Of a stretch of DNA of 64,000 bases, positions 2,852 through 33,697 are shown in pieces; positions within the stretch are counted from its first letter, which is position 1; every line of letters begins with the position of its first letter. Below the pieces are notes generated by a model. It was not told where the DNA came from, made no database searches, and was given only the letters and a program-made list of their open reading frames with translations. The position numbers and the translations under genes were made by a program. The DNA comes from a bacterium (GTDB taxonomy: Bacteria > Patescibacteriota > Minisyncoccia > Phycocordibacterales > Phycocordibacteraceae): contig JAJZTG010000001.1 of assembly GCA_021849125.1 (NCBI GenBank), positions 18,392 to 82,391 of the forward strand. The letters run 5' to 3'.

Positions 2852-3913
2852 ATGAGCTTCCTGACGGGCCTTTTCGGTACGCACGCTAAAGGCGAATCTG
2901 TCGTGCTTGTCGATATCAACGCGCGCTCGATCGCAGGCGCGTACGCGCGCTTTGTCGAAGGCGAACAGCCGGCGATCCTCTACACCCGTCGCGTGCCGAT
3001 CGAGATCCGTGGTGATGAGGCCCACGGTGTTGCCATGCTTCGTGCGCTCAAGATACTTGGTAATGACCTCATAAAAAATGGCGCGCCGATTCTCCTACGC
3101 GAGACAGGGAGCGGTACTGCCGACACGGTTCTGGTCTCGGTAGACGCGCCATGGCAGGACACTTCGGTCAGAACGGAGGTCTTTGAAGATAAGGAACCTT
3201 TTGTCTTTACCAAAAGCCTTGTCGAAAAACGTCTCGAGGAGACAGCAGTGCAGTCGCCAGAGAACCTGCTCGTTGACGAAAGCATTATCGGGACGCTCCT
3301 GAACGGCTACGCGACTCGCAATCCGTACGGCCACGAAGCCCATCGAGCCACCATCATGGTTCTCACTTCGCTCATCGACGAGGAAGTCGCTCAAGACATC
3401 CTTACTACGCTCTCAAGCCTCTTTCATACGAAAAATATCTACCCGATCGCGGGTAGCTCGCTGCGTTATCAGGCGATACGCGTCCTCTTTCCGCACGAGC
3501 ATAATGCGCTCATCGTCGATGTCACCGGTGAATCCCTTACGACCCTGTCTCTCGTACGCAACAACATCTTTGTCCTTCTGACTAAAGTAGCGACGTCGCT
3601 TGGCGGAAAAGACTGGGCGACCCAGATCGTCTCTAACCTCGCTGAAATCGCTACCCGCTACCCGCTACCACGCACCATCTTCCTGATCGCGCGAGAATCC
3701 GACATCGAGGATGTCCGCAAGACTCTCGATGAAGCGAAAATCGGTTCGCTCTGGCTCGTTGATAATCCGCCGCGCATCGTCTCCGTCCTGAAAGACCACC
3801 TTCTTGGATCGGTACGCCAGATGCATACCGCCGCACCCGACGTCATTCTCCTTTGCATGGCCATCTACCACGAATCCAAAGAAAAATTAACCACACCCGA
3901 CCTTTTTTCCTAG
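2852..3913 (+). CDS. actin-like ATPase fold protein (PilM/FtsA-like, degenerate motifs)
   Basis: N-terminal VLVDINARSIAGAY and internal ALIVDVTGESLTTLSLV resemble the phosphate-1 and phosphate-2 motifs of the PilM/FtsA family, but the glycines are substituted. The family call is tentative. Confidence 0.35.
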   Translation: MSFLTGLFGTHAKGESVVLVDINARSIAGAYARFVEGEQPAILYTRRVPIEIRGDEAHGVAMLRALKILGNDLIKNGAPILLRETGSGTADTVLVSVDAPWQDTSVRTEVFEDKEPFVFTKSLVEKRLEETAVQSPENLLVDESIIGTLLNGYATRNPYGHEAHRATIMVLTSLIDEEVAQDILTTLSSLFHTKNIYPIAGSSLRYQAIRVLFPHEHNALIVDVTGESLTTLSLVRNNIFVLLTKVATSLGGKDWATQIVSNLAEIATRYPLPRTIFLIARESDIEDVRKTLDEAKIGSLWLVDNPPRIVSVLKDHLLGSVRQMHTAAPDVILLCMAIYHESKEKLTTPDLFS

Positions 3914-30976: not shown

Positions 30977-31156
30977 ATGTTCCACCTTATCTTCTGGCTG
31001 CTCGTCCTCTTTTTGGCGCTCTCTTTCTTCGGGATATCGATCCAAGCCGTCATAAGTTCACCGGCCGGCCAAGCGAACCTGCACTATATAGCCGCTCTTT
31101 TCGCATCCGTCTGGCATTGGCTGGTCCAGACAGTGCAGAGTACGGGGCTTTTCTAA
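30977..31156 (+). CDS. small two-helix membrane peptide (hypothetical, below ORF-track cutoff)
   Basis: MFHLIFWLLVLFLALSFFGISIQ... 59 aa; weak evidence. Confidence 0.25.
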   Translation: MFHLIFWLLVLFLALSFFGISIQAVISSPAGQANLHYIAALFASVWHWLVQTVQSTGLF

Positions 31157-31231
31157 ACCTCAGGCTTTGCCCTAGGATATTTACGCAAAAGATATATTGT
31201 GCGCACTTTATACGTAGAGCCCTCCCTTGAA

Positions 31232-31272
31232 GGAAGAGGCCCTCCCCGCTATGCTGGGAGGGCCTCTTCCTT
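31232..31272. terminator. bidirectional terminator, 15-bp perfect stem
   Basis: ggaagaggccctccc cgctatgct gggagggcctcttcc. Confidence 0.7.
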
Positions 31273-31295: not shown

Positions 31296-31415
31296 TTAGT
31301 TCTTCAATGCGATAACGATTACCTGAACCAGACTGATGAGGGTGCTTAGGAAGCCGGTCCAGAATGCGTAGACTTCGAGATTCGAGCCCCAACTTTTCTT
31401 ATGCTGCTTCGTCAT
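31296..31415 (-). CDS. small tail-anchored membrane peptide, paralog A (39 aa)
   Basis: MTKQHKKSWGSNLEVYAFWTGFLSTLISLVQVIVIALKN; paralogous to the 32426-32578 peptide (shared VYA..TGFLS.LISL core). The ORF track shows a longer, less plausible extension to 31505. Confidence 0.45.
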   Translation of the reverse strand: MTKQHKKSWGSNLEVYAFWTGFLSTLISLVQVIVIALKN

Positions 31416-31567
31416 ATGAGAAAAGCATATCATGGGCACGGCTTCTTGGACGCTACCCATTATCCACTTCCCTCTCCTATCCGTCCTTTCATGCTTTGAC
31501 TCCACTCTTAAATGCCCGTATCCTGAGTTCCAGCCAGCAACCCAAACCCTAAAAAGGAGGATTCTTT

Positions 31568-32341
31568 ATGTTCTTTCCGTACATAGGCATTACTGATTTC
31601 CTGTCATTTGAACAAGTCGCCCGGATGCTTACCGTGTTTAACGCACACAATCCGCAAGGATCCATGCGGCGACTGCATGTCGGCGTCATGATGAGCTACA
31701 AGACGCTTCACGGCATCGAGACGAAATGGTCGAAGGCCTTCCCGCCCAAGGAAGCCATTGCTAGTATCTTCGGCTCTGAAGAAACCTACAACTGCCTTCA
31801 CTATGCTGACTACGACCATATGCCGAACCTTGGGGAGACTCTCTACCGCGCGATTGGCTACGGTGGTATCGGAATCAACGCCATACAACTCGACATGCCC
31901 TGGCCTGATCCGAGACAAATCGTGCATGGCGTTCATATGTCCCGCCGAAATATCGAGGTCATCCTCCAGGTCGGCAAGGTTGCAATTGAGGAGGCAGACA
32001 ACGATCCTCAAATGGTCGTCCAGCGCCTTGAAGATTATGAGGGAGTGATTCATCGCGTCCTGCTCGACAAGAGCATGGGGCGCGGAGTCGGTATGGATGC
32101 GGTGGCACTACTTCCCTTCGCTCACGCCGTCAGGGCGAGGTTCCCAAACCTTGGCTTAGTCGCTGCAGGAGGGCTCGGACCACAAAGCATCAATCTGGTC
32201 GAACCACTGATCGCGGAGTTCCCCGATCTGAGTATCGACGCTCAAGGAAAACTGCGATCGAGCGGTAACGCACTTGATCCGATTGACTGGAATATAGCTG
32301 CTGAATACCTCGTCAAAGCCTTAGCCTTGTTCGGCAAATAG
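31568..32341 (+). CDS. phosphoribosylanthranilate isomerase (TrpF)-like TIM-barrel protein, orphan
   Basis: Strong SD aaaaaggagg. The N-terminal YIGITDF (like KICGIT), the internal HRVLLDKSMGRGVGMDAVALLPF (like ILLDTKTPEYGGSGKTFDWSLI) and the C-terminal LVAAGGLGPQSINLVEPLIAEFPDLSIDAQGKLRSSGNALDPIDWNIAAEYLVKA (like LSGGLNPENV...VDVSSGVE..PG.KD..KI..F) track the TrpF fold. Confidence 0.5.
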   Translation: MFFPYIGITDFLSFEQVARMLTVFNAHNPQGSMRRLHVGVMMSYKTLHGIETKWSKAFPPKEAIASIFGSEETYNCLHYADYDHMPNLGETLYRAIGYGGIGINAIQLDMPWPDPRQIVHGVHMSRRNIEVILQVGKVAIEEADNDPQMVVQRLEDYEGVIHRVLLDKSMGRGVGMDAVALLPFAHAVRARFPNLGLVAAGGLGPQSINLVEPLIAEFPDLSIDAQGKLRSSGNALDPIDWNIAAEYLVKALALFGK

Positions 32342-32357
32342 TGTGGCATTTCGCGCT

Positions 32358-32427
32358 GGGTACCCTTCGGGGTGCCCAGTTTTTGTACTCTTTGACTGCC
32401 GTAAAAGTTAGGTGCTACACCTAACTT
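32358..32427. terminator. two convergent terminator hairpins
   Basis: The hairpin ctgggtaccc ttcg gggtgcccag is followed by ttttt on the plus strand. The hairpin agttaggtg cta cacctaact is followed by a T-run on the minus strand. Confidence 0.6.
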
Positions 32428-32578
32428 ACTTGACGATCCGCAAGATGAGCATCGCGAGCGAAATGAGCATCGAGAGGAAGCCAGTGAGGACCGCATAAAC
32501 TTGCAGACGGCGCGTTCGGGCACCGTGACCCTTCGAATGCAGCGGCTTATTGAGGAGCCTCTTCTGACTAAAATCCAT
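32426..32578 (-). CDS. small tail-anchored membrane peptide, paralog B (50 aa)
   Basis: MDFSQKRLLNKPLHSKGHGARTRRLQVYAVLTGFLSMLISLAMLILRIVK. Begins 3 nt after the LOG stop. Not in the ORF track in this frame. Confidence 0.45.
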   Translation of the reverse strand: MDFSQKRLLNKPLHSKGHGARTRRLQVYAVLTGFLSMLISLAMLILRIVK

Positions 32579-32580
32579 GT

Positions 32581-33318
32581 CTAGCAGGAGACGTTCGCGA
32601 GGATATATTCATACGCCTCGTCGACCGAATCAACGAGCTTGTAGAGCTCCATGTCGGCTTCGTCGATATTCCCGAACTCCTTGTAGAGCGTATCGTGCAT
32701 GACGCCGAGGAGCGGCTCCCAATATTTCTTGCCGAAAACGACAATCGGAACCCTGCGGATCTTCTTGGTCTGCACCAAGGTGACGATCTCGAAGAACTCG
32801 TCGAGGGTACCGAAACCTCCCGGGAAATACACGTAGACTTCCGAAGCATACGTGAGCATCACCTTGCGCACGAAGAAATGGTCGAAGATGAAGCGGTCAG
32901 TGAGGTATGGATTGTAGCCCTGCGCATCGGCAAGATTGATATTGAGTCCGACCGACGCACCGCCAGCCTTGAAGGCACCCTCGTTCCCTGCTTGCATGAT
33001 GCCGGAGCTCCCGCCCGTAATGATCGCAAAACCTTTCTTCGAAAGACGCCCCGCGAGCTCGGAAGCGTGCTCGTAGTACTCTTCGCCGGGTTTGGTCCGC
33101 GCACTGCCGAAGAAGGTCGCAGCAAGGCTGTAGTGGCGGATGACGTCGAAACCTTCGACAAACTCTGACATGATCTTGAAGATGCGCCACGACTCGACCT
33201 TGTTCGGCTTACAGACGAGGAGCGGACGGTCTTCCGGCATGGCCTGACGGCCTTCATGGATGGCTTTTGCGAGGCGTTCTGCGGTCTCTTCGTTCGGTTT
33301 ATTGTGTTGCGTATCCAT
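32581..33318 (-). CDS. LOG family protein (cytokinin riboside 5'-monophosphate phosphoribohydrolase-like, TIGR00730)
   Basis: GGSSGIMQA and YFPGGFGTLDEFFEIVTL (PGGxGTxxE). Start chosen at ATG 33318 (MDTQHNKP). Confidence 0.8.
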   Translation of the reverse strand: MDTQHNKPNEETAERLAKAIHEGRQAMPEDRPLLVCKPNKVESWRIFKIMSEFVEGFDVIRHYSLAATFFGSARTKPGEEYYEHASELAGRLSKKGFAIITGGSSGIMQAGNEGAFKAGGASVGLNINLADAQGYNPYLTDRFIFDHFFVRKVMLTYASEVYVYFPGGFGTLDEFFEIVTLVQTKKIRRVPIVVFGKKYWEPLLGVMHDTLYKEFGNIDEADMELYKLVDSVDEAYEYILANVSC

Positions 33319-33340: not shown

Positions 33341-33697
33341 TTACAGGCCCTTACAACCGGTGGCGAGCGTATAACCCGCTGCTTCCGCAGCCGAAGCCGA
33401 CGCAAAGGTTATCTTCGTAGCGCTTGAAAGACGACTCGCGCCGGCGCACATGACCGGATAGTACTTGGTGCCGTTTTTTGAAGCCACGACGCGCCCATCG
33501 GAGGGCAAGGGCGTGATAATGGCAGCAGTAGCCGTCCCCTGCCCTGCTGAGACCTGGAGACCTGCCTCACGGCCCGAAAGATAGCCTAAAGCGAAGCTTG
33601 CTGAGGCAGAGAGCAATAATATGGCTAAGATAAAGGCGTCTTTAGGGACGCGCGCGACTAGGCTTTTGCATTTTCCCGCCGCTTCTGCTATAGTCAT
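33341..33697 (-). CDS. small secreted/lipid-anchored hypothetical protein
   Basis: N-terminal hydrophobic segment ILAILLLSASASFALG, Cys at positions consistent with disulfide; Ala/Thr/Gly rich. Confidence 0.4.
   Translation of the reverse strand: MTIAEAAGKCKSLVARVPKDAFILAILLLSASASFALGYLSGREAGLQVSAGQGTATAAIITPLPSDGRVVASKNGTKYYPVMCAGASRLSSATKITFASASAAEAAGYTLATGCKGL

Follow-up and report, generated by a model that had tools for sequence, protein, structure and literature searches.

A family of paralogous small tail-anchored membrane proteins encoded behind a LOG-family gene in a clade of Patescibacteria

Two short paralogous genes downstream of a LOG-family gene

The subject of this work is a stretch of 64,000 nucleotides (nt) from a bacterium of the Patescibacteriota (contig JAJZTG010000001.1, assembly GCA_021849125.1), referred to below as the window, in which two very short genes of the minus strand, pepA and pepB, lie downstream of a gene of the LOG family. 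The longer paralog, pepA (32426..32578), encodes 50 amino acids (aa), MDFSQKRLLNKPLHSKGHGARTRRLQVYAVLTGFLSMLISLAMLILRIVK, with an N-terminal motif and a basic linker preceding a C-terminal transmembrane (TM) helix, whereas the shorter one, pepB (31296..31415), encodes 39 aa, MTKQHKKSWGSNLEVYAFWTGFLSTLISLVQVIVIALKN, and combines a basic N-terminus with the C-terminal TM helix. Both open reading frames (ORFs) were found at the positions assigned to them by an earlier reading of the same DNA (the original prediction). The true start of pepB is the ATG at 31415; upstream of it, a 2-nt indel distinguishes the frame in the window from that in the closest relative (locus L041).

The similarity of the two products, proposed at the outset, proved substantial. 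They are identical at 17 of 33 positions (BLASTP, E=3e-9), and in tblastn searches of the whole window each was the sole significant match of the other (E about 1e-5, the next match having an E of at least 0.2). The predicted layout was also borne out. By the Kyte-Doolittle scale, the best 19-aa hydrophobic segments cover residues 27-45 of pepA and 19-37 of pepB, leaving 5 and 2 residues, respectively, beyond the helix, and the part N-terminal to these segments is basic and hydrophilic, with a net charge of +6 in pepA and +2 in pepB. Each product displays two features of the C-tail-anchored class, namely a hydrophilic N-terminus free of a signal peptide and one TM helix close to the very C-terminal end. 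AlphaFold2 (AF2), given an alignment of 15 sequences, modelled residues 19-49 of pepA as one long helix, with a predicted local distance difference test (pLDDT) score of 93 for the last 20 residues. Proteins of this design would be expected to insert with the N-terminus in the cytosol.

A profile built from the pair retrieved 29 proteins, 36-66 aa long, of which those with a named source come from Candidatus Kaiserbacteria, and an exhaustive hidden Markov model search through 1.84 billion (1.84e9) cluster representatives at 50% identity yielded 37 clusters only. Members span 35-84 aa and share the C-terminal TM layout in all cases seen except P0183, a protein of 131 aa with the motif at its N-terminus. 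Scans of pepA and pepB against Pfam and NCBIfam returned no family at E<=1, and PADLOC gave no match either. Judged by these searches, the family is previously undescribed and confined to one narrow, Kaiserbacteria-like clade of Patescibacteria, a group belonging to the candidate phyla radiation (CPR).

Two types of sequence can be distinguished in the alignment. In type A (pepA-like), M-x-LDYSQKRLL is followed by a basic linker and then by ...YAVLTGFLSMLISL..., while in type B (pepB-like) a short basic N-terminus leads into ...YAFWTGFLSTxISLxQVIxIALKK. Positions L25, Y28, A29, T32, G33, F34, S36 and S40 are invariant. Y28, T32, S36 and S40 follow one another at i+4 spacing and thus occupy the same face of the helix, forming the one-sided stripe Y28-A29-x-x-T32-G33-x-x-S36-x-x-x-S40. 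For codon analysis, distinct sequences from the fetched loci were used (34 distinct TM-core sequences for type B). The ratio of amino-acid-changing to silent differences (pN/pS) was 0.32 for the type A TM core (pS 0.65), 0.18 for the type B TM core (pS 0.73) and 0.12 for the DYSQKRLL motif (pS 0.93). Such low values at saturated silent sites indicate purifying selection acting at the protein level. The reading frame is kept in unique sequences from more than 30 genomes. From the sequence comparisons, pepA and pepB are real, expressed-gene-like paralogs under protein-level constraint; their paralogy, pN/pS values and layout uphold the earlier view that they are genuine tail-anchored membrane proteins which escape normal ORF cut-offs.

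The tandem arrangement pepA-pepB is the architecture found on deep branches of the LOG tree and is the ancestral form, the original order being p118 > LOG > pepA > pepB on a single strand. Many contigs carry instead a fused single gene (e.g. P0012), in which the pepA N-terminus continues through a translated spacer ending in '...LSSM' into a full pepB.

The LOG operon, its surroundings and the expression of the peptide genes

The gene preceding pepA (32581..33318, minus strand) encodes a LOG protein of type II, 245 aa long. Its assignment in the original prediction was confirmed by PF03641 (2.4e-28, 99.4 bits against a cut-off of 27) and TIGR00730 (2.1e-39, 135.1 bits against 96.35). Searches of the PDB matched residues 35-240 to 5zi9, 5wq3 and 1wek with E between 1e-48 and 3e-50, and PGGFGTLDE, a form of the catalytic PGGxGTxxE motif, can be read in the translation. 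By sequence, the protein thus resembles type-II LOG cytokinin-riboside 5'-monophosphate phosphoribohydrolases, to which 5zi9, 5wq3 and Thermus thermophilus TT1465 (1wek) belong. PADLOC, a search for known anti-phage defence, found nothing on the peptides or on the barrel protein described below, and on LOG a single weak PsyrA stretch of 47 residues (E=8e-5). Most LOG orthologs examined from the clade end in ...ANVSC-stop, with a conserved C-terminal Cys, whether or not the peptides lie downstream (32581-32600, minus strand, in the window).

In the window, pepA adjoins LOG as had been described, except that the gap is 2 nt (TAG-AC-ATG) and not 3 nt. The tie between the two genes holds beyond this genome: among 33 LOG junctions examined, 24 have a motif-bearing peptide whose start lies between -4 and +13 nt relative to the LOG stop codon, and there is no Shine-Dalgarno (SD) sequence at the junction in the window. 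This spacing implies, at the level of sequence, that translation of pepA is coupled to that of LOG through termination-reinitiation.

A different mode of expression is suggested for pepB. On the minus strand, an extended -10-like element, TGATATGCT (31424..31432), lies 8 nt before its ATG, as a candidate promoter for a leaderless mRNA. Of 25 distinct loci, 24 have the pattern TGnTAnnnT (mostly TGGTATCCT) ending 6-10 nt short of the pepB ATG, and the 25th has TATAAT at 6 nt; in the window as a whole, the pattern precedes only 18 of the 1,887 ATGs (1%). We infer that the element is an extended -10 promoter from which transcription would begin at or near the ATG. Consistent with leaderless translation, pepB starts with ATG in all 25 loci, and in the window it has stayed intact although a terminator and an antisense gene separate it from LOG-pepA. 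Fused genes retain the element and the ATG in frame ('G-I/T-L-S-S-M'), so that the short product may still be made from them.

Another motif, AGGGAAGTGG (31464..31473, minus strand), borders the region upstream of pepB on its 5' side and occurs with 0-2 mismatches to AGGGAAGAGG in about 19 of 25 loci. In most loci the strongly conserved AGGGAAGWGG follows the stop codon of pepA or LOG, with a variable 12-47 nt between it and the -10-like element downstream. Its sequence complements the pyrimidine tract that precedes the pepB start codon, and in about half of the loci RNAfold predicts the two to pair. No covariation between motif and tract was detected in a register-anchored count (75.7% paired versus 75.3% in shuffles, 208/500); with pairing no better than in shuffles, we do not claim an RNA hairpin here.

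The wider context was established from contig look-ups, a pattern scan in which each GTDB species was represented by one genome (30 loci) and a tblastn map. The common layout is L9 > < L27, p118 > LOG > pepA > pepB > [variable] < sm59 [variable] < M23 peptidase < GltX. In all 40 peptide loci first mapped (30 of them from distinct species genomes), the gene directly preceding the peptides, in the same orientation, is LOG; the later loci L041-L043 and L051 agree, and no locus has anything intervening between LOG and pepA. The first gene of the p118-LOG-pepA-pepB series, p118 (33341..33697, minus strand), encodes 118 aa with an N-terminal hydrophobic stretch, read as a TM helix, and a C-terminal Cys-containing domain weakly matching NF051437, the 'sunset domain' (E=0.015). 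Its start is only 19 nt from that of the divergent L27 gene, and its synteny is kept in most loci. The interval between pepB and M23 is a hot spot of gene content in L001, L008, L009, L010 and L043, where genes for an HhH-GPD glycosylase, NUDIX, DUF1653 and DUF6941 proteins and large unknown ORFs occur between syntenic flanks. In the window this variable region contains sm59 (30977-31156, plus strand), a gene for a conserved unannotated small membrane protein of 59 aa, MFHLIFWLLVLFLALSFFGISIQAVISSPAGQANL.... Homologs of sm59 are present in most loci, including the peptide-less L048 and L049, independently of the pepA/pepB family.

A barrel gene inserted between pepA and pepB

In the window, the spacer between pepA and pepB is occupied by a lineage-specific insertion of 948 bp (31479..32426), which contains a single gene with its own expression signals. 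This gene (31568..32341, plus strand) encodes a (beta/alpha)8-barrel protein of 257 aa from an uncharacterised family spread across Patescibacteria. In L041, which shares about 85% nucleotide identity with the window and has a 90% identical pepA, the LOG, pepA and pepB genes are contiguous, with a 64-nt spacer. Blastn homology between L041 and the window runs over 33400-32427 and 31478-30701, a break which implies that 31479-32426 replaces about 15 nt of spacer. The bracketing of the barrel gene by the two peptides, on which the original prediction had laid weight, is thus a result of the insertion. No direct repeats flank its borders, and a tRNA scan of the region found none.

The inserted gene has a promoter-like TTGACT-17-TATCCT at 31496-31524 (plus strand) and the SD sequence AAGGAGG (31554-31560) 7 nt before its ATG. 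The latter had been singled out as the strongest in the window; it is among the strongest there, being one of five such 7-mer SD/start pairs. Three hairpins accompany these genes. One, with an 11-bp stem including G.U pairs and a following T-run (32355..32380, plus strand, -21.9 kcal/mol), resembles an intrinsic terminator and ends the barrel gene. Another, a perfect 10-bp hairpin followed by TTTT (32405..32427, minus strand), overlaps the pepA stop at the edge of the insertion and is missing from L041 at this position; from the comparison of the two loci, it is a part of the inserted cassette which now ends the LOG-pepA transcript and cuts off pepB. The third (31230..31272) separates the convergent genes sm59 and pepB, has 20-nt arms and reaches -38 kcal/mol on both strands, and is likely a bidirectional terminator. 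While the segment is delimited by hairpins as described earlier, they are not all the long perfect terminators then supposed, as the arms of the third are 95% complementary and the stem of the first includes G.U pairs. An Rfam scan of the region gave nothing relevant, the hairpin at 31230-31272 attracting only a meaningless sub-threshold microRNA match.

The barrel protein had been described as TrpF-like, which is true to a slight degree only, no affinity specific to TrpF having been seen. Its AF2 model is a confident eight-stranded (beta/alpha)8 barrel (pLDDT 93.2) and faintly PRAI-like, but no match to it was found in Pfam (E up to 1, then up to 10), NCBIfam or PADLOC, and PF00697 (PRAI) was touched by 3 of 27 homologs, always below the gathering threshold (E 0.0056 or weaker). 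The top Foldseek neighbours in the PDB were TPI, MJ1099 and OMPDC, with TM-scores of 0.5-0.6 and 7-15% identity, and no TrpF entry was among the best 50 rows. Single-sequence and profile searches of the PDB gave sub-threshold matches to the phosphate loop of RPE, with which the C-terminal AGGLGP loop was aligned, and artefactual alpha-repeat matches, and were set aside. The protein thus has the fold and AGGLGP loop in common with PRAI/TrpF, RPE, OMPDC and MJ1099 but belongs to a separate family that has no Pfam model and matches the known ones only below threshold; it is probably an uncharacterised enzyme binding a phosphate sugar. Its invariant residues include H37, K45, H78, D81, D109, E130, D167, S169, G202-L-G-P205 and R230.

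Nor is the gene an orphan, if the word is taken to mean one without homologs. We found 1,124 homologs, of which the 120 listed are full-length and 63-81% identical, from Paceibacterota, Jorgensenbacteria and Minisyncoccota. Elsewhere in Patescibacteria (loci L044-L046) the gene is monocistronic, with unrelated neighbours. It is absent within 4-5 kb at all 40 peptide loci first mapped, and in an assembly from the same clade, JAQVIY01, a homolog (81% identical, L044) is located on contig 3 while LOG-pepB (L040) is on contig 1. By these comparisons, the barrel gene is a recent insertion unrelated to the peptides and LOG.

Possible roles of the peptides

The nearest known kind of protein is that of bacterial C-tail-anchored proteins such as YqjD, ElaB and YgaM (DUF883), with operon-encoded mini-subunits (CydX and KdpF, for example) as a further near group. 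Like the former, pepA and pepB have no signal peptide, anchor a cytosolic N-terminal part through a single C-terminal TM helix and occur as paralogs. In YqjD, the N-terminus carries the (ribosome) binding and the TM helix drives dimerisation (bioRxiv 10.1101/2024.08.16.608256). By analogy, the same logic of a docking motif joined to a dimerising helix may hold for pepA. Unlike the proteins described here, YqjD, ElaB and YgaM are about 100 aa long (versus 35-84 aa), belong to DUF883, to which neither peptide shows a Pfam match at E<=1, and have the 50S ribosome as a partner, with no coupling to LOG; the present family occurs in one CPR clade.

The second group, CydX, KdpF, AcrZ and MgrB, comprises proteins shorter than 60 aa with one TM helix, often unannotated and often encoded or translationally coupled in the operon of their partner. 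Small size, the single helix and missed annotation are shared by pepA and pepB, and operon coupling by pepA. The partners of those proteins are integral membrane complexes, and a tail-anchored orientation with an N-terminal cytosolic motif is atypical among them. Here, in contrast, the coupled upstream gene encodes a soluble enzyme, and p118 is the only membrane-anchored product of the operon.

The explanation that we favour, tentatively and as a possibility rather than an established role, is that pepA and pepB act as an accessory membrane adaptor or regulator whose cytosolic motif docks a partner encoded in the operon. The helices would pair or oligomerise through their invariant face of small and hydroxyl residues (the Y28 to S40 stripe described above), and the cytosolic motif of pepA (M-x-LDYSQKRLL) would dock a partner, soluble or in the membrane, that the same operon encodes, LOG being the prime candidate and p118, through its TM helix, the alternative. 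A helix pair combined with a docking motif would suit an adaptor or regulator rather than an enzyme, a toxin or a signal. The natural fusions, in which the pepA motif runs through 'SSM' into a full pepB, imply that one TM helix plus the motif suffices. A bolder version of the adaptor scheme is that the peptides are a dedicated membrane receptor of type-II LOG, giving some episymbiotic CPR bacteria a membrane-tethered phosphoribohydrolase beside nucleotide uptake, and that in the lineages with fused genes an internal leaderless promoter yields a long, docking isoform and a short one consisting of the TM part only. We consider this elaboration quite doubtful.

Several observations weigh against the adaptor scheme. 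The N-terminal motif of pepA was modelled with low confidence (AF2 pLDDT about 56), and we know of no precedent for a soluble nucleotide hydrolase with a TM mini-subunit. An architecture with pepB only, devoid of the N-terminal motif, exists in six lineages (L031, L034, L036-38 and L040). The loci belong without exception to a single clade that keeps the entire block L9-L27-p118-LOG-...-M23-GltX in synteny, so that the position of the peptides next to LOG does not provide independent evidence of functional coupling. Furthermore, LOG persists where the peptides do not. Sampling from the side of LOG drew on three database orthologs and a metagenome scan; the choice of the three was biased towards genomes outside the peptide list, so that the resulting fractions are not frequencies. 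Of the eight LOG orthologs so obtained with downstream DNA (59-80% identical), six are peptide-less, one (L047) is followed by a remnant, and downstream of the eighth (L051) the peptide is fused and intact. When LOG cores were placed in a neighbour-joining tree, L047-L050 fell within the peptide-bearing loci, which implies several independent losses. Retention of LOG in several nested lineages without the peptides marks these as accessory and dispensable.

The remnant in L047, 'MMCAFWTGFVSTTISLLRLRSRS', is located around 3350-3420, downstream of an 80%-identical LOG gene, and is a decayed pepB with a truncated helix and no basic N-terminus; as far as sequence can tell, it is direct evidence of gene loss under way. 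The original prediction had tied its case to conservation of the ORFs in relatives which retain LOG and the TrpF-like gene, and the outcome is divided: wherever the ORFs occur they are well conserved, yet several lineages with LOG have lost them or carry decayed copies. In other bacteria, none of about 70 type-II LOG loci fetched (about 50% identical) has the peptide family downstream.

The strongest competing explanation, which we nevertheless regard as somewhat unlikely, is that pepA and pepB are self-standing small membrane proteins, whose partner, a membrane protein or transporter, is encoded elsewhere, the linkage to LOG being historical only. The family would then possibly have arisen de novo in the 3' flank of LOG, where it uses the transcription and translation of that gene, and undergone tandem duplication later. 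Its narrow distribution and young appearance agree with such an origin, and so do the uninformative synteny of the block, the repeated losses that leave LOG unaffected, and the lineages in which pepB occurs without a cytosolic motif; moreover, pepB has a promoter-like element of its own and survives uncoupled from LOG in the window. Against a merely historical linkage stand the tight spacing of the pepA start to the LOG stop in most lineages and the fact that no rearrangement splits LOG from pepA despite the variable region next door.

Membrane-damaging peptides of the type I toxin kind, silenced by RNA structure or antisense RNA, are a much less probable identity. Type I toxins such as Hok, TisB, Fst and Ldr are small, with one hydrophobic helix and charged termini, and pepA and pepB resemble them in all these respects; the complementarity between the purine-rich motif and the tract before the pepB ATG, with its predicted pairing in about half of the loci, could also be taken for a silencing device. 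The pairing, however, does not covary, so that there is no regulatory RNA fold supported by covariation, no antisense partner was identified, and neither Rfam nor PADLOC yielded a match. In contrast to type I toxins, the peptide genes keep a single syntenic core position through vertical inheritance, the translation of pepA is coupled to that of an enzyme gene of housekeeping type, and the polar helix face and the cytosolic motif are strongly conserved.

The module initially proposed, in which LOG, the TrpF-like barrel and the peptides were to share N-ribosyl-phosphate chemistry as one signal or toxin system with membrane partners, is highly improbable. It drew on the adjacency of the four genes in the window and on the membership of LOG in a family of nucleotide phosphoribohydrolases, and the barrel does contain AGGLGP, similar to a phosphate-binding loop, and has as a structural neighbour MJ1099, an enzyme binding phosphoribosyl pyrophosphate. 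Nevertheless, as a conserved unit it is refuted by its occurrence in 0 of 40 loci and by the uninterrupted LOG-pepA-pepB series of L041. The barrel gene, moreover, runs opposite to LOG and the peptides and has a promoter-like site, SD sequence and terminator of its own; a second genome of the clade carries it on a contig other than that of LOG-pepB, and in other Patescibacteria it is monocistronic among unrelated neighbours. With that gene being a recent unrelated insertion, the three-part nucleotide module does not exist. Finally, chance frames, or conservation due to a non-coding constraint, deserve practically no credence: the ORFs are short, skipped by gene callers in some assemblies (pepB) and unannotated in NCBIfam and Pfam, but the pN/pS of 0.12-0.32 at pS of 0.65-0.93, the frame preserved in more than 30 genomes and the L047 remnant, which shows what lost constraint looks like, speak decisively for proteins.

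If the adaptor interpretation is true, an unannotated, clade-specific family would join the repertoire of small membrane proteins of CPR bacteria, in which membrane biology and nucleotide salvage, both poorly understood, have a central place in the symbiotic way of life. The locus further displays, as a natural series, the tandem pair, the fused gene, the single gene, the decayed remnant, the complete loss and the uncoupling insertion, and so lends itself to studies of how such small proteins originate, merge and disappear.

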